A program made the translations under genes and the position numbers. This document shows positions 15,032 through 32,537 of a stretch of DNA of 40,108 nt, in pieces (the stretch's first letter is position 1; each line of letters begins with the position of its first letter). This DNA comes from an uncultured Bdellovibrionales bacterium (GTDB taxonomy: Bacteria; Patescibacteriota; Minisyncoccia; Moranbacterales; DUUL01), in the NCBI GenBank assembly GCA_964393045.1, contig CAYMRZ010000002.1, positions 1 through 40,108 of the forward strand, written 5' to 3'. Under the pieces are notes generated by a model. It searched no databases and was not told the DNA's origin. It saw only the letters and a program-made list of their open reading frames with translations.

Positions 15032-17695
15032 ATGGCACTACACAAAGACTTTCCAAAATCACCACACAAAATACTTAGTCCAGATATCCGATGGTTTCCA
15101 GCGGATGAACTGTTGCGTGAAAAAGGATTTGAGAAACTGCTTCCTCCCTTGGTTCCCAAACTTAGAAAAGAGGTAAAAAAATGGAGGGAATCTGGATATG
15201 AAGGTGCAAGTAATACTAGCAAGGCACTGATGAGATGGTGGTTTCAAAATCCCCATCCAGTGGAAACAGCTGAGGGTCCAACACATTATTTCCAATATTA
15301 CTTTGCTCAAAGAGAAGCAATTGAAACAGTTATTTTTCTTTATGAAGTAGCGGGAGTTAAAGATAAGTATGACTTAATTCGTTTCGATATGTCTGAGGCG
15401 GTTTCTCCTAATATGTTTGCTGAGGAATGGCTTAGATTTGTTATTAAAATGGCAACGGGAAGTGGAAAAACCAAAGTGATGAGTCTTTTAATAGCGTGGA
15501 GTTATTTTCATAAAATGTATGAAGAAAATTCTGAATTAGCAAGGAATTTTTTACTTATAACCCCTAATATTATTGTGCTTGACCGTATTAGGAGTGATTT
15601 TGATGGACTTAAGATTTTCAATGAAGATCCTATAATTCCCGATAGTGGTTTTGAAGGCAATAACTGGCGAGACGATTTTCAAATGACATTACATATTCAA
15701 GACGAAGCTAATGCGGCCAGGAAAACTGGGAATATTTTTTTAACTAACATTCACAGGGTGTATAACAGTAAAGACAAGGTGGCTGATTTTAAAGATAACG
15801 ATACAACAAATTATTTTCTTGGTTCTCGTCCAGTTGCTCATACTGGTGATTCAAAAGTAAATCTTGGAGAAATTGTGAGAGATGTTGATGAGTTGATGAT
15901 TCTAAATGATGAAGCTCATCACATTCATGATGAAAAACTTGCTTGGTTTAAATCAATTGAGGATATCAGCAATCGAATGAAAATGAAGGATAAAAAATTA
16001 TCTTTGCAAATAGATATGACAGCAACCCCTAAACATAATAATGGCTCAATTTTTGTTCAAACTGTTTGTGATTATCCTTTAGTTGAAGCAATACATCAAA
16101 ATGTAACCAAGCATCCAGTTCTGCCAGATTCTGCTAGTAGGGGCAAGTTGCAAGAACACAAAAGTTCTAAATTTACAGAAAAATACAAAGACTATATTCA
16201 TCTTGGCTATCTGGAATGGAAAAAAGTTTATGAACAGCATGAAAAACTTGGGAAAAAAGCAGTCTTCTTTGTAATGACTGATGATACTAAAAATTGTGAT
16301 GAAGTAAATGAGTATTTACAAAATACATATCCAGAGTTTGAAGATGCAGTGTTAACAATTCATACTAAGAATAACGGTGAAATTTCAGAGAATGTCACAG
16401 GAAAAAAAGAAGAGGAATTAAAGGAACTTAGAAAAGCATCAAATAAAATAGACAAAACAGATAGTCCATATAAAGCAATAGTTTCTGTTTTGATGTTAAA
16501 AGAAGGTTGGGATGTTAAAAATGTTACAACCATCGTTGGGCTTCGTGCATATTCAGCCAAGAGCAATATTTTGCCTGAACAAACACTGGGAAGAGGATTA
16601 AGAAGGATGTATAAAAATTCTGATGTAGCAGAGTATGTCAGTGTAGTTGGAACAGAGGCATTTATGGATTTTGTTGAATCAATTAAGAATGAAGGAGTTG
16701 AACTCAAAAAGAAGAAGATGGGAGAAGGAACAGAGCCCAAAGCTCCTCTTATTGTTGAAGTTGATAATGAGAATATGAAGAAAGATATTAAGAATTTGGA
16801 TATAAAAATTCCAGTTTTAAGTCCAAGAGTTTATCGAGAATATAAAAATATATCAGAGCTGGATACAAGTAAATTTAAAAACAAAAAAATAAAAATCAAA
16901 AAGTTCAGTGAGAAAGAGAAAAAGAAAATTATTTTTAAAGATATTGCATCTGGAGAAGTTACTCACACAACTGAATTTGACAGTAATTTTGTTCCTAATT
17001 ATCAAAGCGTGGTTGGATATTTTACACAAACAATAATGCGAGAATTGAGATTGGTTAGTGGTTTTGATATTCTTTTTGGTAAAGTGAAAGAATTTATTAT
17101 GAATCATCTCTTCGAAAAGCAAATTGATTTAGAGGATTTGAATAGCCTTCGCAACTTGTCTGAATTGGAAGCAACTAGAACAATTATAGAAACCTTTAAA
17201 AAAGAGATTAATGAATTGACAGTGGTTGAAAAGGGAGAAGCAGAAATTAAAGATTATATCAGTGTAGGTAAAACCCGCCCCTTTGTAATAAAAGAACAAG
17301 GATTTATTGTTCCCAAGAAGAGTGTTTTTAATAAAATTGTGGGAGATAGTTATTTTGAATTACAGTTTGCAAGTTTCCTGGAGGAGTGTGACGACATAAT
17401 GTCTTATGTAAAGAATTATTTTGCGGTGCATTTTAAAATTGACTATAAAGATGCCGATGGAAACATCAGGGATTATTATCCAGACTTTATTGTAAAATTA
17501 TCACCAAACAAAATTTGCATTGTGGAAACCAAAGGGAGAGAAGATTTAGATGATATTGAAAAAATAAAAAGGTTAGAACAATGGTGTGATGATATAAACG
17601 AAGTTCAGAATAAAACCAAATTTAGTTGGGCTTATGTGAAGCAAAAAGATTTTGAAAAATATAAACCAGAAAAATTTAGTGATATTTTGAAATGA
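15032..17695 (+). CDS. res: Type III restriction enzyme Res subunit (SF2 helicase plus C-terminal PD-(D/E)xK nuclease)
   Basis: MATGSGKTKV (motif I), LNDEAHHI (DEAH), MLKEGWDVKNV, QTLGRGLRR (motif VI), and C-terminal YYPDF...IVETKG nuclease motif. Confidence 0.8.
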   Translation: MALHKDFPKSPHKILSPDIRWFPADELLREKGFEKLLPPLVPKLRKEVKKWRESGYEGASNTSKALMRWWFQNPHPVETAEGPTHYFQYYFAQREAIETVIFLYEVAGVKDKYDLIRFDMSEAVSPNMFAEEWLRFVIKMATGSGKTKVMSLLIAWSYFHKMYEENSELARNFLLITPNIIVLDRIRSDFDGLKIFNEDPIIPDSGFEGNNWRDDFQMTLHIQDEANAARKTGNIFLTNIHRVYNSKDKVADFKDNDTTNYFLGSRPVAHTGDSKVNLGEIVRDVDELMILNDEAHHIHDEKLAWFKSIEDISNRMKMKDKKLSLQIDMTATPKHNNGSIFVQTVCDYPLVEAIHQNVTKHPVLPDSASRGKLQEHKSSKFTEKYKDYIHLGYLEWKKVYEQHEKLGKKAVFFVMTDDTKNCDEVNEYLQNTYPEFEDAVLTIHTKNNGEISENVTGKKEEELKELRKASNKIDKTDSPYKAIVSVLMLKEGWDVKNVTTIVGLRAYSAKSNILPEQTLGRGLRRMYKNSDVAEYVSVVGTEAFMDFVESIKNEGVELKKKKMGEGTEPKAPLIVEVDNENMKKDIKNLDIKIPVLSPRVYREYKNISELDTSKFKNKKIKIKKFSEKEKKKIIFKDIASGEVTHTTEFDSNFVPNYQSVVGYFTQTIMRELRLVSGFDILFGKVKEFIMNHLFEKQIDLEDLNSLRNLSELEATRTIIETFKKEINELTVVEKGEAEIKDYISVGKTRPFVIKEQGFIVPKKSVFNKIVGDSYFELQFASFLEECDDIMSYVKNYFAVHFKIDYKDADGNIRDYYPDFIVKLSPNKICIVETKGREDLDDIEKIKRLEQWCDDINEVQNKTKFSWAYVKQKDFEKYKPEKFSDILK

Positions 17696-17804
17696 GAATA
17701 AGAAATTTAAAAAATATCTAGAAAATTTAATCTGCCAGTTAAAACAATAAACGAAGCCTTATGGCATTATTCAAAATAATTCTATAAAAATTCACTGAGT
17801 TTAT

Positions 17805-18827
17805 ATGAAAAATAAGCCCATTAACAACAAAAAACTTTTTTTCACAGGCTTAGCGTTGTTCCTTATTGGAAGGACAATATTCTACTTAGTAGGAGGATTA
17901 ATAGGGGAGTCAGTTGCAGTAGCCTTTGATCTTGTTTCTTTGCCAATGTTAGCTATAGCAATAATGAGGTATTTTGTTAAATTGTTTTCGAAAGATGAAG
18001 GTAGCAACGAAGATCAAAAAGAATTAAATGAAAAAATCAAAAATGAAGAGGCAAGGCAGAAACACGTTGAGAATAAGAAAAATAAAATATTTGTTTTAAA
18101 GAAAAAAAAGAAATATACAACAATAGCGTCTATTTTAATTTTTCTATCTTCAGTTTTAACAATATTTTTTGTTTTCTTTTTTGGTATTTCCAAATTAGCT
18201 TTAGTAGGAGTATTGGTTTATCTTTTCTTGGCCTATTTTGTTTATAGGGAAAAAAAATGGGCTATTGTTGCTGTTGCGATTTTTTTTACACTTGATAAAA
18301 TATTGCAAGGGATAGAGGAGCCAAATATGGCAAAAAGCATTTTCTTTTGGTGGATAGCCTTTATGTCTGTATTTTTGGGAGCTTATAGGGAGTTGTCCAA
18401 AGAAAAAAAGATAATAAATAATAAGATTTCCCAAGAGAGAAAGGAAGATAGGCGAAGAGGGAATGGCAATAGAAATAATTCTAAGCCTTTACTTTTATCC
18501 CTTTTCGGAATTGTAATTTTAATAAGTGGTGTAATTTTTTATTGGTTTGCTGTTAGGCCTGCTAATATAAGAAAGGCTTGTTCTTTAGTTGAGATAAAAA
18601 CATATTCTCAAGAAGAAAAGGATGATGCCAAAAAATATCTTCAAGAAAGTTGCCCCAACTTTGAAAGCTTGGCTGGTAGAGTTATACTTAGAAATGAAGG
18701 CAGTCAAGAATGTTTAAATAAACTGGATATTTTATATGCGCCAACAGGTAATGAAAATCAAACCAGATCTGCTACAGATGAAGAATATAAAGAATGTTTA
18801 AGAAGGAGTGGATTACAGACGGAATAA
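17805..18827 (+). CDS. Polytopic membrane protein with a Cys-containing C-terminal extracytoplasmic domain, function unknown
   Basis: Several hydrophobic helices (FFTGLALFLIGRTIFYLVGG, ILIFLSSVLTIFFVFFF and others). Confidence 0.45.
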   Translation: MKNKPINNKKLFFTGLALFLIGRTIFYLVGGLIGESVAVAFDLVSLPMLAIAIMRYFVKLFSKDEGSNEDQKELNEKIKNEEARQKHVENKKNKIFVLKKKKKYTTIASILIFLSSVLTIFFVFFFGISKLALVGVLVYLFLAYFVYREKKWAIVAVAIFFTLDKILQGIEEPNMAKSIFFWWIAFMSVFLGAYRELSKEKKIINNKISQERKEDRRRGNGNRNNSKPLLLSLFGIVILISGVIFYWFAVRPANIRKACSLVEIKTYSQEEKDDAKKYLQESCPNFESLAGRVILRNEGSQECLNKLDILYAPTGNENQTRSATDEEYKECLRRSGLQTE

Positions 18828-18840
18828 ATAAAATTCAAAA

Positions 18841-19446
18841 ATGAAACCTATTTATTTTGGCAAAAAGGAATCAGGAGAAGACCTGTATTTGGATTTGGAA
18901 AAAGAGGGTATTCATTTTATTTCGCTTCTGGGGGCAACTGCATCAGGCAAGAGCGTTTTTCATGAAAATTTATATAAAGAATTGACTGATAAATATACAC
19001 CCGAAGAACTCGGGTTTATTTTTATGGATATGACCAGGGTAGATTTTGTTGATTGGAGATCGCCTGAATATCTTATAAAACCAACTATTGTTGAGCCTGA
19101 TGAGGCCTTGAATGTATTAGGGAATGTCAAAGATGATAGCAAAATAATTTTTATCCATATTGAGGAATGTGATATGGCCTTTATTAATAGAGCCAAAATG
19201 GAGAAAGGTCTGGATAAAATCAGGAAAAAAGAAAATATCTTCTTAGTTTATTCTACTAGCCGAATAGATCAAAGTTATTTAAAGGACTGGATGGATAAAT
19301 ATTTTGATTTAAATATTATCTTCAGAACAGCCGCAAAAGAAGATTCCCAATTTCTTCTGGGAAATGAGAACGCTTTTAATTTTGAAGATCCAGGAGAGAG
19401 GATTTTGGCTTTTAACGATAAACAGATAAAACTAGTTCCATTTTAG
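18841..19446 (+). CDS. Stand-alone mini FtsK/SpoIIIE(HerA)-type P-loop ATPase (201 aa)
   Basis: LLGATASGKSVFHENLYKELTDKYTPEELGFIFMDMTRVDF parallels the FtsK motor Walker A region. IIFIHIEECDM is the Walker B equivalent, and FLVYSTSR parallels the ATQRP segment. Confidence 0.5.
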   Translation: MKPIYFGKKESGEDLYLDLEKEGIHFISLLGATASGKSVFHENLYKELTDKYTPEELGFIFMDMTRVDFVDWRSPEYLIKPTIVEPDEALNVLGNVKDDSKIIFIHIEECDMAFINRAKMEKGLDKIRKKENIFLVYSTSRIDQSYLKDWMDKYFDLNIIFRTAAKEDSQFLLGNENAFNFEDPGERILAFNDKQIKLVPF

Positions 19447-19464
19447 TAAAGAGTTATTTATTAT

Positions 19465-22062
19465 ATGAAAAGTAGTTACAGAATAAAAACAATTAAGAAT
19501 GCAGATTTATATATCAAAAATTGGGCTAAAAGTCGGAACGAAAATTGGCTGAATTTTTTGTGTAGTAAAATTATCGAAACAAGAAAACCAGCGAATGAAC
19601 AATTAATAAGCAAGACATATAAATTATTTCAAAGGGAATATGAGCTGGTTGAAAAAGCAGATGTAAAAAAGTCGAATAGCCCTCAGGGGAATAATATAAG
19701 CGATAGAAATGAAACCACAGAAAAACCAAAATCTGTAACATTATTATCTCTTACTCATATTGAAGGAGTAAATGCCTTAAAACAAGATGAACCAATAAAT
19801 TTTCATCCTAAATTAACAGTTATTTATGGTCGCAATGGAGCTGGAAAATCTGGATATATTAGAATACTTAAAAAAATAAGTAAAGCAAAAACTGCTGAGG
19901 ATATTTGGTCAGATATTCGAGAAAAAAAAGAAAAAAATCAGTGCAAAGCAAAGATTTCTTTAGCGGTTGATGGAAAAAACAAGGATTTTATGTGGTGCGG
20001 AGAGGAGTTATCAGCTCCTTTTAATTTTATTAAAATATTTGATGGCAAGTGTATTCCTATTTATCTTAACGAAAAAATAGATTTTTCATTAACTCCATTT
20101 GGTTTGGAATTATTTTCTTTTATCACGGCTGTTTTTGTGGAGATAAGAAAAAAACTAGATGAAGACATAGAAAGCAAAAAGCAACAAAACAATCCTTCAA
20201 ATATATTTACGGAAGACACAAAAACTTTCAATGTTATAAACGAAATTAGTGCAGATACAAATCTAGATGACATTTTTGAATCGGTTAAAAATGTAAAAGA
20301 AATACAAAAAAAGCTAAGTAATGCAAGGAGCGAGTATAAAAGAATTATTGGTATAGAAGACAGGCTAAAGGTTTTACAAAATGAAGAAAAAGTTATAACA
20401 CGGCTGTTGAATTATTTGGATAAAATAAATGAGAATTTCAACGAAAAGAAAATAGCAGAATATAAAAAAGAGGTAAGCGAATGGATGAAAAAGGAAAAAG
20501 AAGCTAAAAACAAAAGCTTAACAAATTTTTCCAAATATGGAATCGAGAAAGCAGACTTTAATGAGTGGCATAATTTTATTTCAAACGCTGAACAGTATAT
20601 AAAAATTTTAGATAAACCAGCATATCCTTCGGCTAAAGAAAAGTGTATTTATTGCAACCAGGAGCTATCTGAAGAAGCAGTTAGTTTAATACAAAGTTAT
20701 AGAGATTACATAAACAGTGCTGCGGAGAAGCTATTGCAGGAAATAAATCTCAAACAAAGAGAGTACTGTGCAAATGCCGAGTCACTAAGCTACTATAATT
20801 TCACAGAAGACAAAAAGGATTTGAATAATATATTAGGTGAAGAGTTATGCAAAAAGGTGTTTGATTTCTTAGAGGAAGCCAGTCCATTTATTGGTAATTT
20901 CATCGATGGTTTGAAAAATAAAAATTTAGACAAACAAGGATATTGCTCGGAGTATAATTTGAGAAAAGAAACTCAAGAAGTAAAAAATAACCTGCAGGAA
21001 AAAATAAAGCAAGCCAAGTCTGATAAAGAGAAGTTCAGCAGTAAGACAAGAGAATTATTTAACGAGATAAGAAATTTAGATGACTTAATAAAATTAAATA
21101 AGAATAAAAATGCTATCAGTGATTATGTTGATAAATTGAAGTGGATAAGAAAAGCGGATGGCTTGTTGCCAAAATTAAATACACAGCCTGTGACTAATTG
21201 TCAGAAAAAAGCTTGGAAGAGACTTGTGTCTGACAGTTTTGAAAAAAAATTTCAAAAGGAATGTGAAAATTTATCAACGCCAGAAATCGAGCTGTCTTTT
21301 CCTGCTGAATATGGAGTTCAAAAAAGAGCAAAATCTCTTGAAGGCTTGAAAAATATAGACGAGTTTTTGAGTGAAGGGGAGCAACGCTCAGTAGCATTGG
21401 CTGACTTTTTTGCAGAAATTGGAACTGACGATGTTAATGCTCCCGTTATTTTTGACGACCCTGTAAATAGTATGGATGATTTAAGAAGGGATAAACTAGC
21501 TCAACGGATATATGAGGAATCGCAAGAACGTCAACTTATTGTTTTTACACACGACATTTTATTTGTAAGTCATCTTTATGATAAAGTTTACAATAATGAT
21601 AAAAATAAAGTTGAACCAACGTTGGCTAATTTTCACTGGATGGAAAAAGACAGAGGATATTGTGGAAAAATGACAGAAAATGCTTGTCCGAGGATGGACA
21701 AATTAGGGAGAATACGAGGCGAAGTAGAGCAGATAATTAAGAGGGTGGCAAACTCCAACGCTTTTGAAAAAGAATCACAAATTGGAGAGGCATATTCAGG
21801 AATGAGGGAAATGCTTGAGTGCATTGTTGTCGAAAAACTTTTCAACAGGGTAGTTGAAAGATGGAGCGAAAGGATGAAAATGCATAATCTTACTAAAGTC
21901 GTTTTAGATTCTGAAAAGTATAAGAAAACAAGAGCTTTATTTGAAGAATTTAGCGGATATATAAAAGGACACAGTCATTCGGCTGTTAGCAAACAAGATT
22001 TTCCAGACTTAGACAAACTTAAAGAAGATTTTAAAAAAGTAAAAAAGCTGTATGAACAATAA
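19465..22062 (+). CDS. RloC-like ABC ATPase (AAA_13 type) with a long coiled-coil insert, CxxC zinc hook and putative C-terminal anticodon-nuclease region
   Basis: Walker A YGRNGAGKSG, ~500-aa coiled-coil insert with KCIYCNQEL, signature LSEGEQRS, Walker B VIFDDPVNSMD, H-loop VFTHD. The C-terminal GMREMLE...H pattern is reminiscent of the PrrC/RloC Arg-Glu-His triad. Confidence 0.55.
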   Translation: MKSSYRIKTIKNADLYIKNWAKSRNENWLNFLCSKIIETRKPANEQLISKTYKLFQREYELVEKADVKKSNSPQGNNISDRNETTEKPKSVTLLSLTHIEGVNALKQDEPINFHPKLTVIYGRNGAGKSGYIRILKKISKAKTAEDIWSDIREKKEKNQCKAKISLAVDGKNKDFMWCGEELSAPFNFIKIFDGKCIPIYLNEKIDFSLTPFGLELFSFITAVFVEIRKKLDEDIESKKQQNNPSNIFTEDTKTFNVINEISADTNLDDIFESVKNVKEIQKKLSNARSEYKRIIGIEDRLKVLQNEEKVITRLLNYLDKINENFNEKKIAEYKKEVSEWMKKEKEAKNKSLTNFSKYGIEKADFNEWHNFISNAEQYIKILDKPAYPSAKEKCIYCNQELSEEAVSLIQSYRDYINSAAEKLLQEINLKQREYCANAESLSYYNFTEDKKDLNNILGEELCKKVFDFLEEASPFIGNFIDGLKNKNLDKQGYCSEYNLRKETQEVKNNLQEKIKQAKSDKEKFSSKTRELFNEIRNLDDLIKLNKNKNAISDYVDKLKWIRKADGLLPKLNTQPVTNCQKKAWKRLVSDSFEKKFQKECENLSTPEIELSFPAEYGVQKRAKSLEGLKNIDEFLSEGEQRSVALADFFAEIGTDDVNAPVIFDDPVNSMDDLRRDKLAQRIYEESQERQLIVFTHDILFVSHLYDKVYNNDKNKVEPTLANFHWMEKDRGYCGKMTENACPRMDKLGRIRGEVEQIIKRVANSNAFEKESQIGEAYSGMREMLECIVVEKLFNRVVERWSERMKMHNLTKVVLDSEKYKKTRALFEEFSGYIKGHSHSAVSKQDFPDLDKLKEDFKKVKKLYEQ

Positions 22063-22916: not shown

Positions 22917-23828
22917 ATGTTTTTATTTAAAAAACAAAAATCAATAAAGTTAAGCGAAGCGGGGAAACAATATCTGGACTTTTGTGAACTGGAAAAGGAA
23001 ATGAGTCCTTTTTCCATCTATGAATACAGCAAAATAATAAAGTGGACTGTTGATATTCTTGGCGATCTGAATATCCAAAATTTAAATGAAGAATGTATTG
23101 TCCAACTCAAGAAAGAATATAACAGACGAAGATTAAAACCATCAACCAGGGCTAATAATCTTTCTGTTGTTAGGGAAATTTTAAAATTTTGCCAAGAAGA
23201 AATGAGTTTGAAAGTTATGAATTTTGAAAAGATAAAAAGACCGAAAATTCCCAAAAGAAGAGTTGAATATCTAACTGAAGAAGAGTTAAAACATTTTTTT
23301 AATGCTATTCCTAAAAAAAGCACTAGAGATTTTAGATTCAGAACATTATTGGCAATTTTAATTTCTACAGGTTGCCGTATTGGCGAGGCATTAGATTTAA
23401 AAATTCAGGATATAGATTGGGAAAATAAAGAGGTAATAATAATTGGCAAGGGGAATAAAGAAAGAAAGTTGTACTTTACTGATTGGTCTTTAAAGTGCAT
23501 AAAAGAATATATAAAAAAGAGGGGGTATGAAGGCAAGTTTATTTTTGTAGCCGAAGGCAAGAAAAATCGCTGGGACAGAAACGATGCCCAGAGAAATTTT
23601 AGAAATTATCGTAAGAAACTAGGGTTGCCATCTCATATCACTGCTCATACCATAAGGCACAGCTTTGCCACACTTTTAATGAAAAAAGGTATTAGCTTGG
23701 GACACATCCAGGTATTACTTGGACATTCAAGTGTGCAAACTACCAGCAGGTATTATTTGGGGATTTTAAATGATGACGAAGCGAAAAGTGCTCACAGGAG
23801 AGGATTGGGTATGGATTCGTGGTTGTAA
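22917..23828 (+). CDS. Tyrosine recombinase/integrase no. 4
   Basis: STGCRIGEAL, GKGNKERKLYF, HTIRHSFATLL and GHSSVQTTSRYY. It is paralogous to no. 2 (shared MFLF-K N-terminus). Confidence 0.85.
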   Translation: MFLFKKQKSIKLSEAGKQYLDFCELEKEMSPFSIYEYSKIIKWTVDILGDLNIQNLNEECIVQLKKEYNRRRLKPSTRANNLSVVREILKFCQEEMSLKVMNFEKIKRPKIPKRRVEYLTEEELKHFFNAIPKKSTRDFRFRTLLAILISTGCRIGEALDLKIQDIDWENKEVIIIGKGNKERKLYFTDWSLKCIKEYIKKRGYEGKFIFVAEGKKNRWDRNDAQRNFRNYRKKLGLPSHITAHTIRHSFATLLMKKGISLGHIQVLLGHSSVQTTSRYYLGILNDDEAKSAHRRGLGMDSWL

Positions 23829-24712: not shown

Positions 24713-24718
24713 TTTTAA

Positions 24719-24746
24719 TTCCTCCCACGAATCACCTCCTTTCTAG
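24719..24746 (+). repeat. 28-nt island-end motif TTCCTCCCACGAATCACCTCCTTTCTAG; its last 16 nt duplicate the 16S 3' tail
   Basis: Identical to 38329-38356. ATCACCTCCTTTCTAG is identical to 32-47 at the genuine 16S end. Confidence 0.8.
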
Positions 24747-24808
24747 GGAGTTTTTGACAAAACCGAGAAAATGTTTTTCATTATAGCTTACACTCTTTAT
24801 AGTGGAGC

Positions 24809-24977
24809 TAGAAAAATATTGGTTTTGTCCGCCCGCCTGCAACGCTTTGCGTAGCAATGCGGGCAAGGCTGGTCGAGTCCCGCTAAGCGGGAGAACAGCT
24901 AGCTTAGCAGTGCGAATACTGTTAGTGGATTTTGTACAATCCACGGGCTCATACGGGCTAATCGCAAAAAGTTGTGA
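24809..24977 (+). ncRNA. Structured RNA 'X', copy B
   Basis: Same 5' and 3' blocks as copy A. It has an extra hairpin GCCCGC...GCGGGC (absent in A, present in C) and stems TCCCGC/GCGGGA (24878-24892) and GTGGATT/AATCCAC (24925-24944). The preceding spacer (24747-24808) is homologous to 48-110, including TTGACA and CTCTTTATAGTGG. Confidence 0.6.
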
Positions 24978-24991
24978 TAAACTTAAATAAT

Positions 24992-25019
24992 AAAACACCT
25001 CTACTTTGGAGGTGTTTTA
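24992..25019 (+). terminator. Rho-independent terminator after X-B
   Basis: AAAACACCTC-loop-GAGGTGTTTT with a trailing T-rich run. Confidence 0.6.
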
Positions 25020-25154
25020 TGTTATATTAAAATTATCGAAACAATAGATTTAAGCTAAAAGACAAAAATAGGACCAAAAAAGGTACCTGACCCCTTTTCT
25101 CTAACCGAAGCTAATGTGTGATTGCCCCAGTACAATAACTATACGGGGTAAACC

Positions 25155-25241
25155 ATGAAAACAAGCAATCAAAAACGAACCATCCAAAATACAAAAGAAG
25201 AATTTCTCACTTGGCTTCAAGTGGAAAGAAGATTCGCCTGA
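25155..25241 (+). pseudogene. Relic of an integrase no. 1-type gene (first 28 codons only)
   Basis: MKTSNQKRTIQNTKEEFLTWLQVERRFA* matches ...NTAEEFLTWLQVERRFAQ of the 826-1749 product. The upstream GAAGCTAATGTGT (25108-25120) matches 655-667. Confidence 0.7.
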
Positions 25242-25255
25242 AGCTCAAGCTATCA

Positions 25256-25290
25256 CAAAAAACACCCGCGAGGTGTTTTTTTATTTTTTT
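25256..25290 (+). terminator. Rho-independent terminator
   Basis: AAAAACACC-CGCGA-GGTGTTTTT followed by TTATTTTTTT. Confidence 0.6.
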
Positions 25291-25375
25291 CAATTTGACT
25301 TGGTCGACAATATAAGATAGCATTGACTAGAAGTACATTGAACAATCAACTGAATAGAAAAAAAGGGGGTAATAT

Positions 25376-26413
25376 ATGAAGTCTAATAGCACAAACGAAG
25401 AAGTCTATTGGAGAGATGCTTTGAATTTTAGTAAAAAAGAAGCTGGGGTAGCGGAAAGGTTTAATGACTGGGTTCCTGAAAAGATAATCGATTGTCATGC
25501 CCATTGTGGCTTAGCTGAACACGTAATGAGGCTTGAAGAAATGATTTTTAATCATATGAGCTCAACGTTTCTGAGATTTGGACTCAAACAATCAGCGTTA
25601 ATTCAGAAGCTCTTTTATCCCGGCAAAATTGTTCGTTATTTACGGTTTCCATTTCCGTTTGCAGGAGTTGATGTGAAGAAAGCAAACGCTTATCTCTTGG
25701 ATGGTGCTCGAGAGAAAGACAGGGTTGCAATTTGTGGAATGCCCGATGATGTTGATTATACGGTTGGTCTGCTTGAAGGAGAAAATATTTCGGCTTTGAA
25801 AATTTATCACTTCTATTTTATTCCTCCTGCAAAAAGAATCTATGAATTCTTCAAATCGGAGATACTGGAGGTAACTCAGAGGGAAGGCGTGCCAATTATC
25901 CTGCATCTGCCTAAGCCGATTACCCACTGCCTAAGTGATCTCCGACAACTATTGAAAGACTTTCCTAGGCAAATAGTTGTTTTGGCACATCTTGGTGTCC
26001 CCATTTTTTCGGATGATGAATTAGCAGCTGTTTATGGGGAGATTGCGAAAAATGAAAATGTTTTCATGGACACGGCTATGATTTCTTCAGTTGGCGTTGT
26101 AAAAAAGGCTTTAAACAAACTTGGTGTCAGTCGAATCATGTTTGGGTCTGACGAGCCATTAAATATGGTAAGGGCAATTGTTTATGAAAATCCAAGCTTG
26201 GGGCAACGGTTAGCTTCGTCATACCCATATCATTGGGTCAATCCAAGAGAGTTTGAAGAATTTGGTCATCTGGCTAAGGGGGCAATGCATTTTCACTGGC
26301 AAGCGATCGAGGCTCTTCGAGAGGGGGTAGAATCGCTATCTTTCGCTGAGACAGCTCAGGCCATTGGCAAAATCTTTTTTGGCACGGCCAAAGAAGTCTT
26401 TAGTTTTGACTAA
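25376..26413 (+). CDS. Amidohydrolase-2 family metal-dependent hydrolase (TIM barrel)
   Basis: IIDCHAHCG (HxH), HLPKP, LAHLG and MFGSDEP motifs. Strong RBS AAGGGGG. Confidence 0.6.
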   Translation: MKSNSTNEEVYWRDALNFSKKEAGVAERFNDWVPEKIIDCHAHCGLAEHVMRLEEMIFNHMSSTFLRFGLKQSALIQKLFYPGKIVRYLRFPFPFAGVDVKKANAYLLDGAREKDRVAICGMPDDVDYTVGLLEGENISALKIYHFYFIPPAKRIYEFFKSEILEVTQREGVPIILHLPKPITHCLSDLRQLLKDFPRQIVVLAHLGVPIFSDDELAAVYGEIAKNENVFMDTAMISSVGVVKKALNKLGVSRIMFGSDEPLNMVRAIVYENPSLGQRLASSYPYHWVNPREFEEFGHLAKGAMHFHWQAIEALREGVESLSFAETAQAIGKIFFGTAKEVFSFD

Positions 26414-26597
26414 GAATATTGTTCGCTGACTTGCGGGGTACTCTGAACGAAGAATTCCCCGCTTTTCATTTTTATGTTAGATTTATTGTGTGTATATGTA
26501 CAAAAGAGTATCAGTATATATTTGACAAGAATGTCCTTTTTGTGGAGAATAATCTGAATACTATTTGATAGTCACTCTAATCCATGATACTTTATAG

Positions 26598-27617
26598 ATG
26601 AAAATAGTTGAAAAAAATAAAAGATCCATTGTATATTTAGGGAGCGATTTTTCTCGTGACCTAGAGGAGATATTCGGGGAAGCTCAAATCGAAAATGGAA
26701 GAGTGTTGCTGGTGACGGGAGAGAAAAGCTTTGACCAATCATTTTATAAAAAAGAGTTCCTTGGTTTGTTGAAAAAACTGAATTTGACTGTGTGCAAAAG
26801 AATCAGGACTTCAGCGAATCCTGATTTATTTTCTTTCAAAAAGGAACTAGACGGTTTGGGAGGAACTGTCGATTGGGTTTTTTGCGTTGGCGGTGGATCA
26901 GCTATCGACTATGGCAAGTTGGCGAAACTTAAGAAGTTCAAAGAAGCGAAGATTTTTGTTTTATATACATTGCCGGGATCGGGGTCAATTGTGACGCCGT
27001 TTGCTATTTACGATAATGGAGAGTTTAAAATCGGGGATCATTCTGAGGACATCATTCCAGATGTTGTCTATGCTAACAAAAAAGTCATAGAAGACCTGAG
27101 CCAGGAATTGAGATTGATTGCAGTATGTGACATCTATGCTCATGCGATGGAGTCTTTATTGTCCAAAGCGAATACGGAAGAATCAGAGAGACTTTCTAAA
27201 GAAGTGCTGGACATCTTATCGAAAAAACAAGAAATTGAGAAGATGAATGTGGGAGAATTTTTGGAGGCCGATATTGCTGCGGCAAAAGCCGAGAGCATAG
27301 CGCTTGTTCTCTTTCCCCATGCGATAGGGCATTATTTGACATATAAGCTTGGCGTGTCACATCCAATAGCCTCAATTGTTTTTTTTCAAGAATTTATTGA
27401 ATTATTAATTTCCAAGGGCGTAGAAGTGGATGTGAGCCACATAGAATATTTGTTAGAATTAAAGAAGCTGCTTAAGGAAAAGGGTCTGTTGAGGGAGCAC
27501 TACGAGGTTGAAGCTGAAAGCGCCATGAGTTTAATCGAGAAGTACATGGGCTTTGTTTTTAATAACAGTCCAATTTCCATTCTTCGAAAGGAGTATTTGG
27601 GGATGATTAAGAAATAA
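26598..27617 (+). CDS. Iron-containing alcohol dehydrogenase / dehydroquinate-synthase-like oxidoreductase
   Basis: VGGGSAIDYGKLA nucleotide motif. Metal ligands in DIYAHAMESL and HAIGHYL. Confidence 0.6.
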   Translation: MKIVEKNKRSIVYLGSDFSRDLEEIFGEAQIENGRVLLVTGEKSFDQSFYKKEFLGLLKKLNLTVCKRIRTSANPDLFSFKKELDGLGGTVDWVFCVGGGSAIDYGKLAKLKKFKEAKIFVLYTLPGSGSIVTPFAIYDNGEFKIGDHSEDIIPDVVYANKKVIEDLSQELRLIAVCDIYAHAMESLLSKANTEESERLSKEVLDILSKKQEIEKMNVGEFLEADIAAAKAESIALVLFPHAIGHYLTYKLGVSHPIASIVFFQEFIELLISKGVEVDVSHIEYLLELKKLLKEKGLLREHYEVEAESAMSLIEKYMGFVFNNSPISILRKEYLGMIKK

Positions 27618-27629
27618 CAAAAGCGACAA

Positions 27630-28853
27630 ATGGGCAATGGAAGGGATAAACTTGGAAATCTTAACAGAACCATAAGACAAGCGAAAAAGTCAGTCTTATA
27701 TTCAAAGAAACTTTCAAGTTTTAAAAAATTAAATTCCCTTGAAGAGCTAAGAGATCTTCCATTCACTACGAAAGAAGATTTGAGAGGAAGCTATCCCTTC
27801 GGGGGTCTTTGTGTTGGTAAAGAAAGAATAGTGGAGATGCACACGACGTCAGGAACAACAGGAAAGCCAACGCTTTCTTATTATACGAGAAAAGACTTGG
27901 AAATTGGTTCTGATGAGGTGTCGAAAGCATGGGCTGGTTTAGGCATAAATGAGAAGAGCAGAGTCCAATTTATTATGAGTTACGGTCTTTTTAGCGGCGC
28001 AATGTTGAATACATATGCTCTTCAAGAGCTGGGAGCACTTGTTTTGCCCGCGGGCATTCAACCAATCGTGAAACAAGTTGAAATGATGATAGATTTTGAG
28101 GTTGACACATTGGTTGCGACGCCTGGCTTTCTGTTGTATCTGTGTGAGCATCTTGAGCAAAACAAAATCCCTAGAAATAAATTGAAATTAAAAAAGGCCA
28201 TCGCAGCAGGAGAAGTATACTCAGATCAAATCAGGAAGGAAATTGAAAAGAGACTGAACGTAAAAGTGTTTGATCATTACGGATTGTGTGAAGTGTATAC
28301 GGGGATAGCCTATGAATGCAAAGAGAAAAAGGGACTACATTTATTGGACGATTTTGTTATTACAGAAATCATTGACACAAAAACAGGAGATGTCTTGCCT
28401 GATGGGAAATATGGAGAATTGGTATTTACCAGTCTCAGGAAAGAGGCTTCTCCCGTAATTCGTTATAGAACAGGTGATGTTTCTTGTTTAATAAATAGAA
28501 ATTGTTCATGCGGAGTCGAAGGTGTTCGCTTGGGAAGAATAAAAACTCGAGTTGATGACTTGGTTTTTATTCGGGGAATAATGATAAACCCTCACGAGCT
28601 AAAAGAAACGATTGTTGACTTTGCCGGAAAAAATCTCTTTGGTGGAGACATGCGAATTGAAGTGAAAAAAAATTCTATAAAGAATGATCCTAAGATTTAT
28701 TTGACTCTGAACGGAAAGGCGGGAGAGTTCATCCCAAGGCTCAAGAAAAAAATCAAAGATGAAACAAAGATCAACTTTGAAATCGTCAATGTAGACAAAA
28801 GTTTTTTTGATAGGGAAAACAGTACAAAAGTAAAATTAGTGGAGTATGTATAA
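27630..28853 (+). CDS. PaaK/F390-synthetase-like adenylate-forming enzyme (acyl-AMP/CoA ligase; the LuxE acyl-protein synthetase is a related family)
   Basis: LRDLPFTTKEDLR N-terminal motif, TTSGTTGKPT P-loop, YGLCE. Confidence 0.65.
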   Translation: MGNGRDKLGNLNRTIRQAKKSVLYSKKLSSFKKLNSLEELRDLPFTTKEDLRGSYPFGGLCVGKERIVEMHTTSGTTGKPTLSYYTRKDLEIGSDEVSKAWAGLGINEKSRVQFIMSYGLFSGAMLNTYALQELGALVLPAGIQPIVKQVEMMIDFEVDTLVATPGFLLYLCEHLEQNKIPRNKLKLKKAIAAGEVYSDQIRKEIEKRLNVKVFDHYGLCEVYTGIAYECKEKKGLHLLDDFVITEIIDTKTGDVLPDGKYGELVFTSLRKEASPVIRYRTGDVSCLINRNCSCGVEGVRLGRIKTRVDDLVFIRGIMINPHELKETIVDFAGKNLFGGDMRIEVKKNSIKNDPKIYLTLNGKAGEFIPRLKKKIKDETKINFEIVNVDKSFFDRENSTKVKLVEYV

Positions 28854-30042
28854 AAAAATAATGAAAACCGAAGACGTAAATGCTGTTGTTAATGACCTGG
28901 TAGACTTTTTTGAAAGGAATAAAAAAGAACTTTTGAAGCTAAACGAGGCATGCACTCAGGACACAGACTATTGGATCGAAGAGGACTGGAAGTACGCCCT
29001 AGCGTATTTGATAAATTTTAAAAAGAACATAGTTTTTGCCCTGAAACAAAGGCGAAAACCAAAGGGAATTATCTTTATTATTCTTTCTTATAATGAACCA
29101 TTGCTGCTCTCTATTATTCCGATCCTTAATGCTTTGGCCGGGGGCAACAAGGTCATAGTTAAGCCGAGTAGAAGAGCTGAGGGAATTTGGAATGCTATTT
29201 GGATAGAGTCGGGAATTGTCGAGAGACATAATCTGATGTTGGAAACTGTTTCGGGAAATAGTGTCGAATCTCTTGAAAAATATATAAAAAAGTCTAGCGC
29301 TGTATATTTTTTTGGTGGGCATGGGATTGCCAAGAAAGTTTACAAAGTTTGTGCAAAACACTTCGTAGAATTCTATCCAGAGATTGAAACAGCGGATTGC
29401 AAAATTATTGATATTCACAATGTTGACCAGTTTGATGTTGAAGAAGATGTTTCATTGACATTGCGTGAATCTTTTTCTCATGCAGGTCAAATTTGTCACA
29501 GAATTCAAGGAGTTGCGGTTGTGGGAGGTGTGTATGACAAATACAAAAAGATGTTGGAAAAGAAATTTGACGAACTAGAGGGTGAGGATGACAAATGCTT
29601 AAATGAGAAGTTTAATCTGAATGAGAGCTACCTGAAATTTGCGATGAATGACATTGATGAGGCGAAGCCAAAAAATATTCGTAAGCATAACAACGGTTTG
29701 CCCTTTTTGATCATTGAGCCGGATAAGGGCAGCGCGTTCGTTAAAAGTGCTTACTTTCTTCCCGCTCTTTGGATCGTGAAGATTAAATCAGAGAAAGAAC
29801 TCATTTCGTTTTTGAATGGGAGGAGTTATTTCTTGGGTGTTAACATAATGTGCGATGATGACATTGCGATTGAAAAAATTATTGAAAGCACTAATTTTAG
29901 CAGATATACAGTAAACACTTCTCATACAAAAATAAGACTTGATGAAGGGTGGGGAGGAAATTGGCCTAGTGGATTTTCGGGCTATAAAAATTGGTTTGAA
30001 CAGTTTACAAACCAATTTGACAAGATCACAACTTTATCCTAG
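28846..30042 (+). CDS. Aldehyde dehydrogenase superfamily protein (short; possibly LuxC-like acyl-CoA reductase)
   Basis: NEPLLLSIIPILNALAGGNKVIVKPS and catalytic-Cys context HAGQICHR. The start overlaps the upstream stop by 8 nt. Confidence 0.5.
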   Translation: MYKKIMKTEDVNAVVNDLVDFFERNKKELLKLNEACTQDTDYWIEEDWKYALAYLINFKKNIVFALKQRRKPKGIIFIILSYNEPLLLSIIPILNALAGGNKVIVKPSRRAEGIWNAIWIESGIVERHNLMLETVSGNSVESLEKYIKKSSAVYFFGGHGIAKKVYKVCAKHFVEFYPEIETADCKIIDIHNVDQFDVEEDVSLTLRESFSHAGQICHRIQGVAVVGGVYDKYKKMLEKKFDELEGEDDKCLNEKFNLNESYLKFAMNDIDEAKPKNIRKHNNGLPFLIIEPDKGSAFVKSAYFLPALWIVKIKSEKELISFLNGRSYFLGVNIMCDDDIAIEKIIESTNFSRYTVNTSHTKIRLDEGWGGNWPSGFSGYKNWFEQFTNQFDKITTLS

Positions 30043-30140
30043 GATGTCTTGAACGCCCAAAATGGCAAATATCGCCTAAAACAGACTATTTTGTTGTAAT
30101 TTGGCGCTAACAAGTACATTCAAAATATACGGAGGCAATA

Positions 30141-31193
30141 ATGAATAAACTCACGTTTGATGATGGTTATTATCGAAAGTTGTTACAAGAGGCGAGATGC
30201 GGTCCACACAAGTTTGAGTCTATAGACTTCCCCATCGGTTCAATGTCCGAGGCGGAGGTGAGGAGGCTGTGGCTGTGTCATGCGAACGGCAAAAACTTTT
30301 TCAAGGAAAGAGAACGTGGCAAGCCGGTAATCGTTACGACTGGTTTTGGGCTAACGGGCATACCACATGTTGGTACAATCGCTCAAATTGTAAGATCAAT
30401 TCGTCTTCAAAAGGCCGGAATTCCAGTTCAGATAGTATTGGGAGATCTCGACGCCTATAATGGGAAAACAACAGATCTGGTGTTGGCGTTAGGGCTGGTT
30501 GAGAAATATCGTAACCTGATACTGAAACTTGGCTTTGACGATTTGCAACCCAATGTTCTCAGAACACAATTTGAAGCGCTGCCTGTCTTAAGGACACTCT
30601 ACCTGACTGGACATTACATCACCGATGAAATGTTCGAACAAGCCAAGGAGGATGTCCATGATTACTATTTCGAGCATGGAAAAATAGAGGAAGAAATGAC
30701 ATATCGCATGAAGCTTTCTCTTAATCTCATGGTGGCAGACTTTATTGATCTTTTTACTAATCATGGGTTTCAGTCGGTTCTTGTTTTTTTGGGAATCGAC
30801 GAATACAAGTATTGCGGTTTGTCAATGGATGTAGCAGAAGCGATCAAGTCTGGAAACAGGCAATTCGCTGAATTTTCTCTTAGCGGAATTTTCTCTCCTC
30901 TCTTCAGGGGCTTTCATGGTCATCCAAAAATGGGCAAGAGTCTTCCTGATTCAGGTATTGACGTTGGAATGACGCATGATGAGATAAGAAAACGAATCGT
31001 TAAGGGCGAGGGAGAATTTGATTCGCCTGAGAATAACGTGGTTTTCCAAATCATGTTAGCGCTGGAGAGTCGATCGGAATCAGAGTGGGAAGAAATATAT
31101 CAGGCCTGCAACGAACGTGGAAAGAAATGGTTGGTTATCAAAGAGGGGTTTGCAGAAAAAATAGTTGGAATTTCTCAATTTTGGACCAGTTGA
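30141..31193 (+). CDS. Class Ic aminoacyl-tRNA synthetase-like protein (archaeal-type TyrRS/TrpRS fold, no anticodon/S4 extension)
   Basis: GFGLTGIPHVGT (HIGH position, second His replaced), LGDLDAYNGK, and HPKMGKSLPDSGIDVGMTHDEIRKRI (KMSKS loop). These are colinear with M. jannaschii TyrRS motifs as I recall them. Confidence 0.55.
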   Translation: MNKLTFDDGYYRKLLQEARCGPHKFESIDFPIGSMSEAEVRRLWLCHANGKNFFKERERGKPVIVTTGFGLTGIPHVGTIAQIVRSIRLQKAGIPVQIVLGDLDAYNGKTTDLVLALGLVEKYRNLILKLGFDDLQPNVLRTQFEALPVLRTLYLTGHYITDEMFEQAKEDVHDYYFEHGKIEEEMTYRMKLSLNLMVADFIDLFTNHGFQSVLVFLGIDEYKYCGLSMDVAEAIKSGNRQFAEFSLSGIFSPLFRGFHGHPKMGKSLPDSGIDVGMTHDEIRKRIVKGEGEFDSPENNVVFQIMLALESRSESEWEEIYQACNERGKKWLVIKEGFAEKIVGISQFWTS

Positions 31194-31254
31194 CGATATG
31201 TTGTGGCAATGATAGAATTATAAAAAATAATTCTTAAGTATATGGAGGATAAAG

Positions 31255-32463
31255 ATGAAAAGAGAAGAACGTGAAAAAAAGGTTGACGAACTATTAGACA
31301 GGGGCGTCCTGGTAGAGATTCTTCCGACGAAAAAAGCTTTCAGGAGGAGACTCATTGAGGACAAAATGAAATTCTACATCGGAGCAGATCCGACATCGAC
31401 AGCGTTGCACCTGAGTCATGCCAAGAATTACATGTTGCTTGAAGAATTCAGGAAGCTAGGGCATAAGGTTTTTGTCCTTTTTGGCGACTTTACTGCTCGC
31501 ATCGGTGATCCAACTGATCAATCGGCTGCAAGAACGCAGTTGACCAGGGAAGAGGTTATGGAGAATGTTCAGGGGTGGATTGATCAAATTAAGCCGCTTA
31601 TGGACTTTGGTGCCAAAGTGAACCCTCCTGAGATTGTTTACAATCACGACTGGTTGGCGAAGCTGACAATGGAAGATGTTATTAACCTGTCAGCCAATGT
31701 CACCGTTCAGCAACTGATCGAGAGGGATATGTTTGCAAAACGAATGAGGGAGAAGAAGCCCATTCATCTTCATGAGTTTATGTATCCAATCATGCAAGGC
31801 TACGACAGTGTTGCTCTTGAAGTTGATGTTGAGCTTTGCGGAACTGACCAAATTTTCAACGCGTTGATTGGTCGCACACTCTTGAAAAAACTCAAGAAGA
31901 TGGACAAATTTGTTGCGGCGGTGAATCTGATGGAAAATCCTAAGACCGGCGAGTTGATGTCGAAAAGTCGTGGTACTGGGGTGTTTCTTGATTCAACCCC
32001 CTTCGACATGTACGGCGCAATTATGTCTCAGCCGGATGAAATGATTGAGGTTATTCTGGTGAACAATACCCGTATTCCATTGGATGAAGTCAACAGCATA
32101 GTCGAGAAAAAAGGTCCACGAGATGCGAAGATGTTTGCCGCGCTTGAAATAACCAAAATATTTCATGGCGAAGACGAGGCGAAGCGAGCTCAGGATAAGT
32201 TTATTCTCCTTGTTCAGAGGAAAGAGTCGGCAGACGATGTTCCTGAAATTCATGTCGGCTCCGATGAACATACGTTATTTGGTGTTTTGAGAAAATGTTA
32301 CGATAAAGGCACCAGCAATAGCGCGATTCGTCGCCTGATCAAGCAGCGAGCCGTCAAAGTTGATGGCAAGGTCAATGTAGATGAAGACTCGCTCATTGTT
32401 ATTCCGGATGTCGGGCTCAACATTAAGGTCGGCAAGAAAAAGTGGTTTAAGGTATTAACCTAG
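31255..32463 (+). CDS. tyrS: Tyrosyl-tRNA synthetase
   Basis: YIGADPTSTALHLSH (HIGH), FGDFTARIGDP, CGTDQ, ELMSKSRGTG (KMSKS), and C-terminal S4 domain IRRLIKQRAVKVDG. Confidence 0.85.
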   Translation: MKREEREKKVDELLDRGVLVEILPTKKAFRRRLIEDKMKFYIGADPTSTALHLSHAKNYMLLEEFRKLGHKVFVLFGDFTARIGDPTDQSAARTQLTREEVMENVQGWIDQIKPLMDFGAKVNPPEIVYNHDWLAKLTMEDVINLSANVTVQQLIERDMFAKRMREKKPIHLHEFMYPIMQGYDSVALEVDVELCGTDQIFNALIGRTLLKKLKKMDKFVAAVNLMENPKTGELMSKSRGTGVFLDSTPFDMYGAIMSQPDEMIEVILVNNTRIPLDEVNSIVEKKGPRDAKMFAALEITKIFHGEDEAKRAQDKFILLVQRKESADDVPEIHVGSDEHTLFGVLRKCYDKGTSNSAIRRLIKQRAVKVDGKVNVDEDSLIVIPDVGLNIKVGKKKWFKVLT

Positions 32464-32501
32464 TAGACAAAGTCCTTGACCGTTGCAGTTAACTTAATCC
32501 G

Positions 32502-32537
32502 AGCCCATCCTTTTTGAAAATTGGATGGGCTTGTTCA
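32502..32537 (+). terminator. Terminator-like hairpin after tyrS
   Basis: AGCCCATCC-loop-GGATGGGCT followed by TGTT. Confidence 0.45.

Follow-up and report, generated by a model that had tools for sequence, protein, structure and literature searches.

A putative attachment site of tyrosine integrases at the tip of the 16S rRNA gene in Moranbacterales

Introduction

Genomic islands and prophages enter tRNA and tmRNA genes by means of tyrosine integrases, as described in the 'Islander' paradigm (PMC4383910). Here we analyse a 28-nt motif of contig CAYMRZ010000002.1 (assembly GCA_964393045.1, Moranbacterales), which duplicates the end of the 16S rRNA gene and probably marks the right end of integrative elements inserted at that gene. 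The whole stretch of DNA that was analysed, 40 108 nt long, is called the window. The motif was pointed out in an earlier reading of the letters of the window, referred to below as the original prediction.

As in tRNA and tmRNA islands, an integrase gene lies at one edge and insertion is directed at the 3' part of a structural RNA gene; a copy of this part carried by the island appears to regenerate the gene at one junction, leaving the displaced fragment at the other. Further common features are a tandem build-up of elements where the target is regenerated and a core that overlaps a short stem-loop dyad. The differences concern the target and the restored part. Here, the target would be the last ~12 nt of the 16S rRNA, with the anti-Shine–Dalgarno (anti-SD) sequence. 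The restored part lies mostly outside the mature RNA (a trailer of ~215 nt, one strand of a processing stem and a terminator), and the displaced fragment is a whole trailer RNA headed by an rRNA stub of 12–16 nt.

The attB attachment site of phiEf11 lies within ffs, the gene of 4.5S RNA, and has an identical core of 27 nt (PMC12540744). The two systems share a short identical core (18–25 nt here) in the gene of a small or stable RNA near the integrase gene, and they differ here by the other RNA target, the multi-element arrays and the long structured downstream RNA supplied by the elements.

The locus also recalls integrons. A hot spot lies beside a tyrosine recombinase, and co-oriented units stand in tandem, the newest presumably nearest to the site; one related locus, L097, carries small integrase-less cassettes parted by partial repeats of the trailer RNA. 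Unlike in integrons, each unit of the window and of most related loci has its own integrase or a remnant of it and a full attachment (att) arm made of stub and trailer, and no attC-type sites were seen there. An integron reading was rejected because of this composition of the units.

Eukaryotic rDNA elements such as the R2 and R1 retrotransposons and Pokey exploit the extremely conserved sequence of rRNA genes as a safe and universal target. They insert into 28S genes by retrotransposition or transposition and inactivate the copy that is hit, whereas here a tyrosine recombinase would act and the sole 16S copy would be rebuilt intact.

A full-text literature search, with subscription journals outside its coverage, returned no description of an att site for integrases at the 16S 3' end or the anti-SD sequence; the original prediction, which knew of no tyrosine-recombinase element at this position, was thus in agreement with the literature covered. 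By comparison with the systems above, the integration logic appears to be a known one and the target a new one with an unusual degree of conservation, and the trailer RNA supplied by the elements is unusually long.

The motif and its junctions

The 28-mer, TTCCTCCCACGAATCACCTCCTTTCTAG, occurs exactly at positions 24719–24746 and 38329–38356 of the window. There is no third match with up to three mismatches in the whole window, and none in 100 shuffled controls (0/100). The 16-nt 3' part of the motif, ATCACCTCCTTTCTAG, is found exactly at 32–47, 24731–24746 and 38341–38356. Positions 1–43 of the window align with positions 1491–1533 of the 1533 positions of the Rfam model SSU_rRNA_bacteria (E = 2e-9) and are the same as the 16S ends of 10 related loci; the sequence at 32–47 is therefore the genuine 16S terminus, including the anti-SD CCTCC, with the first flanking bases. 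In the 36 bases upstream of the two 16S-derived stubs, 10 and 12 bases match 16S, which is the chance level. Both copies of the 28-mer lie downstream of the last open reading frame (ORF) of an accessory block, 7 and 60 nt past the stop codons, and no terminator-like site was found between the last ORF and the motif in either case. Each is directly followed by a copy of a structured RNA, called X. These observations bear out three statements of the original prediction: that the motif is identical at two sites, each at the right end of an accessory block and directly upstream of RNA X; that its last 16 nt equal the 16S terminus with its flank; and that the 12 nt before them differ from 16S. The features of the locus are listed in table 1.

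Table 1. Features of the 16S-associated array in the window.
Feature	Positions	Strand	Evidence or remark
Genuine 16S rRNA 3' end	1–43	+	SSU model match; window begins inside gene
Putative attL copy of the 18-bp common core CACCTCCTTTCTAGGGAG	34–51	+	within exact attL/attR block of all five two-ended contigs
Trailer RNA X1, joined to real 16S	48–265	+	nhmmer E 6e-42
Terminator-like hairpin ~190 nt past X1	459–479	+	
Conserved 'D4' element between X and integrase	492–569	+	81% identical to 34176–34253
Small ORF, 61 aa, overlapping integrase start, DUF5049-like	696–881	+	Pfam DUF5049 E 5e-6, below gathering score
Tyrosine integrase 1, 294 aa from ATG at 865	865–1749	+	PF00589 E 3e-36
Island 1 body, including three further tyrosine integrases (1956–2918, 8429–9289, 22917–23828)	1956–24718	+	
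Element-specific right arm TTCCTCCCACGA, non-16S	24719–24730	+	identical at 38329–38340, L091 8789–8800, L097 5628–5639
Putative attR-type stub: last ~12 nt of 16S and first trailer bases; core at 24733–24750	24731–24750	+	
Trailer RNA X2, displaced copy	24747–24978	+	nhmmer E 2.5e-36
Terminator-like hairpin past X2	24990–25020	+	
Integrase N-terminus remnant, left end of decayed island 2	25156–25240	+	81% DNA identity to 883–941
Left-end remnant of a further element: last X bases, terminator, second D4	34128–34253	+	
Decayed 28-mer copy TTCTTCCCATGAAGCACCTTCTTAGCGG	34902–34929	+	71% identical to motif; 5' of Fic-PrimPol/helicase module
Second exact 28-mer (right arm and stub)	38329–38356	+	
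Trailer RNA X3, last of array, no integrase behind	38357–38545	+	E 5e-23

The exact block common to the 16S end (copy 1) and the stub at 24731 (copy 2) extends 4 nt beyond the 16-mer, giving ATCACCTCCTTTCTAGGGAG. Past this block, the homology of the two copies is 81–90 per cent through a spacer and into X. In copy 3 (38341), the GGAG and the ~60-nt spacer are missing, the deletion following CTAG. The 18-bp core covers the mature 16S 3' end, that is the anti-SD sequence, and the first bases of the trailer. It forms an imperfect dyad, CTCC-TTTCTAG-GGAG, and as a hairpin (CTCCTT-TCT-AGGGAG) it is predicted to have 6 pairs.

The junctions were compared with those of about 40 related loci of Moranbacteria and Paceibacteria, which belong to the candidate phyla radiation (CPR). 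The pattern CACCTCCTTT[CT][CT][AG]G collected 26 distinct core-like sites in the window and these loci. The 36 nt upstream of them fall in two classes and nothing between: 34–36 of 36 positions identical to 16S in 14 real genes, and 5–13 of 36 in 12 stubs. The stubs come from several lineages and assemblies (two from the window, two from L084 and one each from L082, L083, L090, L091, L093, L095, L096 and L098), and in all 12 the 16S homology ends at one place, just 5' of (A)(T/A)CACCTCC. An invariant break without intermediates rules out decayed rRNA operons and is characteristic of a fixed recombination site.

Five contigs hold both ends of an insert. The exact block shared by the two ends, attL and attR in the proposed reading, is 18–25 bp long and always contains CACCTCCTTTCTAGGGAG. 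It measures 20 nt between copies 1 and 2 of the window (insert of 24.7 kb), 20 nt in L091 (6.7 kb), 20 nt in L090 (9.5 kb), 18 nt in L093 (1.84 kb, X and integrase only) and 25 nt in L085/L084, a contig that, like the window, has three copies. The flanks of the block diverge: on the left, 16S stands against the element arm, and on the right there are two homologous but non-identical trailers. The right end of L091 is identical over 35 nt to positions 24718–24752 of the window, in a different genome whose integrase is 54–62 per cent identical to that of the window. The 12-nt arm thus belongs to a family of elements. Among the stubs, the upstream arm motifs show partial similarity only (T/CCCACG...), in some lineages. 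A sequence similar to the decayed copy at 34902, TTCCTCCCACGAATCACCTCCTTATCGG, is found at L097 5628, likewise upstream of a module of the Fic-PrimPol/helicase type.

In L079 (Paceibacterota), the order is 16S, X and terminator, followed by membrane-protein and glycosyltransferase genes, with no integrase in 5.3 kb; from this gene order it is an unoccupied-looking site. In close relatives of the window organism, no such site came to light; exact look-ups of the right-flank gene gave no record. Occupancy appears to vary among the related loci, and the case that the original prediction named as refuting, all three copies always present, was not observed: L079 has no integrase, and inserts of 1.8, 6.7 and 9.5 kb occur elsewhere.

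The anatomy is that of a tDNA island in three respects. The regenerated target (1–265) and the displaced fragments (24731–24978 and 38341–38545) are direct repeats, the displaced fragment begins at a fixed position of the target with no target homology upstream, and a tyrosine recombinase is encoded at one end of the element, integrase 1 starting ~600 nt downstream of X1. The target is not a tRNA or tmRNA gene, being the 16S rRNA 3' end.

The trailer RNA

The GTDB genome and JGI metagenome collections were scanned with the degenerate pattern GGTCGA..GCTTARC..CTAAYCGCAAAA, which yielded 21 real loci. RNA X is found at L072 8540–8753 and about 20 other loci, in Moranbacteria and Paceibacteria. 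From 21 aligned copies, a consensus fold of 32 pairs was derived, which begins directly after 16S and in which 18 pairs have compensatory changes; 94 per cent of the cells are paired, as against 35–45 per cent when the partners are slid, and the covariation score is 0.512, as against at most 0.118. In stem P1 of X1, for example, positions 57–65 (GACAAAACC) pair with 123–131 (GGTTTTGTC), and this pairing covaries in other genomes. The idea that X is a mere DNA-level arm was rejected because of this strong compensatory covariation.

In L072, L081 and L091, a sequence ~120–210 nt upstream of 16S is complementary to the conserved 3' end of X (GGACTAAYCGCAAAAGAYTGTGA). The 16S leader was seen in related loci that reach that far, the window starting downstream of its own leader. 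The leader strands (L072 5479–5504, L081 4839–4865 and L091 397–434) pair with the last ~25 nt of X, and the predicted duplexes have energies of -39 to -45 kcal/mol, as against -14 +/- 3 for shuffled sequences. In X1, the corresponding 3' strand of the processing stem is the last 25 nt (241–265). According to these folding models, X is a structured 3' trailer (~215 nt) of the pre-16S transcript, the end of which forms a leader–trailer processing stem around 16S and X.

None of the three copies of X in the window has a match in Rfam, at gathering or permissive thresholds, so that a conserved and covarying 16S trailer RNA outside all Rfam families is brought to light. A disguised tRNA or tmRNA target was ruled out by Rfam and ARAGORN. 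Resemblances by motif to RNase P RNA, tmRNA, SRP RNA, the 23S 5' end and HDV-like or hatchet ribozymes were also considered and found no Rfam support. Several single-stranded motifs of X are invariant (GGUCGA, GGCUUAAC, UUUGUACA and GGACUAAUCGCAAAA), which suggests a function beyond that of a passive spacer.

The copies of the window are mosaic. Positions 24808–24863 of X2 (the 5' 56 nt) are identical to X3, and 24954–24978 (the 3' 25 nt) are identical to X1. X3 lacks the 5' strand of P1, and its 3' half is like the X of L072. A GC-rich hairpin of 31 nt, CCGCCTGCAACGCTTTGCGTAGCAATGCGGG, is inserted at 24833–24863 and 38383–38413; the two inserts are 100 per cent identical, and the hairpin is absent from X1 and the other aligned homologues. 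This points to a recent exchange between the two displaced copies.

Partial copies of X were observed in two related loci. Downstream of 16S-X in L097 (1100–3040), there are small integrase-less cassettes, each with a terminator and an X 3' half (1577–1726 and 2790–2936). The run closes with an integrase remnant; the layout is integron-like, with a different junction that lies inside X. On the minus strand of L079, a 28-nt repeat, GGACTAATCGCAAAAGACTGTGATACTT, is present at 4676–4705 and 5333–5360, around an insert of ~640 bp with one membrane-protein ORF.

The integrase family

There are 747 homologues of integrase 1 at E <= 1e-20, and identities range from 63 to 100 per cent among the best 120 of the 747. 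Homologues with a named source are mostly from Candidatus Moranbacteria or Moraniibacteriota. Six homologues (P0004, P0026, P0020, P0061, P0099 and P0116) were chosen independently of X, and in all of them the integrase gene is co-oriented with a genuine 16S 3' end that lies 0.3–4.2 kb upstream of it. An integrase of the family stands directly 3' of X in L083, L085, L088, L090, L093, L096, L098 and L100. This adjacency is seen behind stubs and behind real 16S ends alike. The linkage suggests that integrase 1 or its relatives catalyse the insertion.

The gene order integrase–integrase–methyltransferase–ParB–TerS–TerL, sometimes followed by another integrase, is common to island 1 of the window and to L077 and L078. 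The same order of integrases, methyltransferase, ParB and terminase is found in L094, L185 and L186, as far as each locus reaches. Just past the third integrase of this conserved island, L077 (19798–19924) and L078 (10144–10270) carry a LOOT RNA (RF03000, 90.8 bits); it was not found at the equivalent position of the window (9200–9560).

Two small features precede the integrase. The DUF5049-like ORF is kept upstream of the integrase in L072, L077, L091, L094, L184 and L187, and its product is a possible directionality factor or regulator. The D4 element is a hairpin with an inverted copy (513–524, minus strand, TTCCAGGGAGAT) and direct copies of the right half of the core (TTCCAGGGAGAT / AGGGAGATTTT); similar elements lie 3' of X in L072, L077, L084 and L085. 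D4 may provide integrase-binding (arm) or operator sites, or be a secondary recombination site.

The IMG/VR collection was scanned for the stub-type core, with no GG before it, and gave one match. This is a viral contig of 49 kb (L104) that encodes an integrase 39 per cent identical to integrase 1 (E 2e-53). The core, caATCACCTCCTTTCTAGGGAG, lies 224 nt downstream of the integrase, the bases 5' of it are not 16S, and genes for a large terminase and an HNH endonuclease stand on its other side. From the pattern and the size of the collection, we estimate a chance expectation of ~0.25 matches of this kind for the whole collection. With a homologous integrase beside the core, chance does not seem plausible, and the site looks like a phage attP. 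Scans of the viral contigs for the 28-mer and for the general X pattern gave no match, and 71 matches to an X 15-mer specific to the window were all chance matches. Among the 80 viral loci with more distant relatives of the integrase, the core was found near the integrase in L104 only.

Proposed mechanism

We consider it likely that the 28-mer is the attR-type right-end junction of integrative elements that use a tyrosine recombinase, with an 18-bp core straddling the mature 3' end of 16S. The proposal of the original prediction, an attP/attR arm with its crossover core at this end, is supported by the fixed break, the short exact blocks, the linkage to integrases and the variable occupancy. 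The first 12 nt of the motif would be the element's own right arm and the next 16 nt the core.

In this CPR lineage, the 16S unit would consist of a leader, 16S and the structured trailer X of ~215 nt that pairs with the leader. An insertion at the tip of 16S would sever the gene from its trailer, and each element would therefore carry its own 16S end of ~12 nt, an X and a terminator. The pairing of the X 3' end with the 16S leader explains why the elements would carry X. The element-borne tip and trailer would rebuild an intact 16S unit at the left junction, and the previous trailer, headed by a 16S stub, would be displaced to the right end. In the preferred model, the X1 copy arrived with island 1.

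Strand exchange would take place within the core; a possible position is the 7-nt TTTCTAG that parts CTCC from GGAG. The core dyad recalls the stem-loops with 7-nt loops of tRNA genes, which integrases favour. In this model, an attB-type junction would link the real 16S end to X2 or X3, for example GTGGATGGATCACCTCCTTTCTAGCCTAGAAAAATATTGG, and an attP-type junction would fuse the right arm with the X1 spacer, TTCCTCCCACGAATCACCTCCTTTCTAGGGAGATTTTGACAAAACCGCAG.

Successive insertions into the restored site would build a tandem array, the older units being pushed downstream to decay. The signs of such decay would be the integrase remnant at 25156–25240, the loss of the 5' strand of P1 from X3 and, at 34902, the degenerate stub. 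The array of the window would then read: 16S; X1 with island 1; stub, X2 and island 2 with its decayed integrase; decayed junctions at 34.1–34.9 kb; the Fic/PrimPol genes; stub and X3; chromosome. Since the decayed junctions at 34128–34253 and 34902–34929 lie inside island 2, the array comprises at least four units.

Several points weigh against this model. That the elements are, or recently were, mobile is inferred from comparative anatomy. Island 1 has four integrases, and the assignment of one of them to the site follows from linkage. The integrase–integrase–methyltransferase–ParB–terminase module is very conserved beside 16S across Moranbacteria and could be an old, vertically inherited resident. 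The X copies are mosaic, the 28-mer and the 5' 56 nt of X2, including the 31-nt insert, being shared with X3 and the 3' 25 nt with X1. With a crossover in the core, this mosaic needs a later gene conversion or homologous exchange among tandem copies; it would follow directly from a crossover inside X. There are also other partial repeats of X, the 3' half in L097 and the 28-nt 3' end in L079, so other crossover points in X may be used.

On balance, we favour a broader proposal, held with less assurance than the junction itself. A family of tyrosine integrases of CPR bacteria, encoded on defence islands of a satellite- or prophage-like kind and on at least one contig of a phage, would use the anti-SD hairpin of the single 16S gene as att core. 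The elements would carry functional replacement trailers, and defence islands would accumulate mainly at the 16S 3' end in these reduced genomes. If this is true, the anti-SD tail of 16S, the most conserved short sequence of bacteria, doubles as an integrase attachment site, and the safe-site logic of tRNA and tmRNA genes extends to rRNA. The elements would have to bring a working trailer and processing-stem strand, which would tie their fitness to ribosome biogenesis, and mobile DNA would routinely supply part of the maturation signals of the host rRNA. The main hot spot of defence islands in Moranbacteria and Paceibacteria would be identified. The array would also help to explain the breakage and mis-binning of 16S-bearing CPR contigs, and its integrases would be candidate genetic tools with a near-universal target sequence.

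Alternative explanations

The same elements might be inserted by an exchange at another point of the ~230-bp homologous region, either midway through X near GGCTTAAC or in the 3'-terminal processing-stem strand of X; the stub would then be the outer edge of a long homology arm carried by the element. The pattern of identities in the mosaic X2 fits such an exchange. So do the cassettes of L097, between which stand 3' halves of X beginning just upstream of GCTTAGC, the exact direct repeat of the 28-nt X 3' end around a one-gene insert in L079, and the X copies of L072 and L081, which are alike in the middle and different at both ends. We nevertheless regard a crossover in X as unlikely. It leaves the common 16S start nucleotide of 12 independent stubs unexplained. 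In L085/L084, L091, L090 and L093, the only exact block is the core of 18–25 bp and the rest of X has diverged; in the phage contig, the core stands beside a homologous integrase with no recognisable X. Moreover, a homology arm upstream of the exchange would restore nothing and should decay.

It is very unlikely that the stub has been retained as an anti-SD decoy or sponge transcript, or as a reused 16S 3' processing signal, possibly besides being an att scar. With no terminator before the stubs, read-through transcripts with CCUCC and X are plausible, and copy 3 lacks the pairing partner GGGAG that could mask its CCUCC. However, pairing of the anti-SD with the GGGAG beside it is predicted in copy 2 and nearly all homologues; in copy 2, the predicted partner is either this GGGAG, 3' of the anti-SD, or CUCCC in the right arm. 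The older stubs also drift (CACCTTCTTAGCGG at window position 34902, CACCTCCTTATCGG at L097 5628, CTGG in L084 and CCAG in L083). Stubs that have lost CCTCC or the CTAG/GGGAG half behave as relics and not as a selected anti-SD. The suggestion of the original prediction that a transcript displays a free anti-SD as a decoy or shares the 16S processing signals thus finds no support in the predicted pairing of copy 2 or in the decaying older stubs.

Stub and X might be remnants of additional rRNA operons that have degraded, or products of segmental duplication by homologous recombination, since three co-oriented, 16S-adjacent copies could in principle derive from duplicated rrn loci and CPR 16S loci are also rearranged by introns. 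This is highly improbable: the 16S similarity ends within ~12–14 nt at a single break point in 12 of 12 stubs, none of which has the further upstream 16S sequence that the earlier reading named as refuting, and each unit has its own integrase or remnant, with unrelated cargo between the copies. A degenerate or pseudo rRNA operon was also rejected for want of residual rRNA homology, identity upstream of every stub being that of chance.

An assembly chimera caused by a mis-join at the conserved 16S end, another refuting case of the original prediction, is scarcely credible. Metagenome assemblies classically break or are wrongly joined at such ends, and many related contigs stop at X or the integrase; but the junction sequences are unique and not 16S, L091 has the 35 nt of window 24718–24752 in a different genome, the three X copies differ mutually, and the same architecture appears in independent JGI, ENA and NCBI assemblies, with the same contig in two collections (L084 = L099 and L085 = L102).

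Gene content of the islands and other observations

Island 1 (266–24718) has four tyrosine integrases in total. Its other genes code for a replication-initiator-like protein, a D12 methyltransferase, a ParB-like protein, TerS, TerL and an FtsK-like protein, and its defence genes for a type III restriction–modification system with an OLD-family ATPase and for the candidate defence protein PDC-S06. The island is probably a composite of more than one element. Island 2 (24979–38328) opens with the remnant of an integrase N-terminus, which has the same 5' leader, GAAGCTAATGTGT, as integrase 1, and closes with SoFic and a PrimPol-helicase (TOTE) gene. The left-end remnant inside it has a counterpart in L072, where positions 8739–8822 are 72 per cent identical to 34133–34225 of the window (blastn).

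The defence cargo is found in two regions: 11288–22062, with the type III methyltransferase, the OLD-family ATPase, the type III restriction enzyme and PDC-S06 (E 1e-121), and 35064–38269, with SoFic and the PrimPol-helicase (Pfam AEP-TOTE, E 5e-87). This cargo is typical of mobile defence islands. L097 likewise has a pair of Fic and TOTE genes 3' of 16S, and L084 and L091 have a Fic gene there.

The cargo at 25376–33613 of island 2 seems to be metabolic or biosynthetic, with an amidohydrolase, an Fe-ADH-like protein, an AMP-binding enzyme and an aldehyde dehydrogenase. The same region holds two genes of the class-I W/Y aminoacyl-tRNA-synthetase family, one a weak match and the other a strong TyrRS-like one. 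If the latter is the sole TyrRS of the cell, part of island 2 carries an essential gene.

ARAGORN found no tRNA or tmRNA in the window, and an Rfam scan found no rRNA match elsewhere in it. An ORF of 58 aa, MazE/AbrB-like, lies at 38949–39125, between the array and a Gmad2/Germane gene; it is either chromosomal or part of a last decayed element.

The 16S genes of some related loci are interrupted near the 3' end by introns, with LAGLIDADG ORFs, a group I intron and a group II fragment (L072 7907–8341, L185 1145–1582, L089 663–938 and L100 1318–1398). The region just 5' of the att core is thus itself a target of other mobile elements. In L101, the sequence between two X copies (~1430–1800) resembles by eye a fragment of 23S rRNA (GGAAGAAATCAAACGAGATTCCC...), and the second X copy starts at GGGAG, without the anti-SD stub. 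Finally, L081, L082 and L083 have a CPR-type 16S end, X and an integrase and sit in metagenome-assembled genomes labelled Bdellovibrionales, Syntrophobacteraceae and Deltaproteobacteria; these labels probably arose when CPR contigs broken at this repeat-rich locus were mis-binned.

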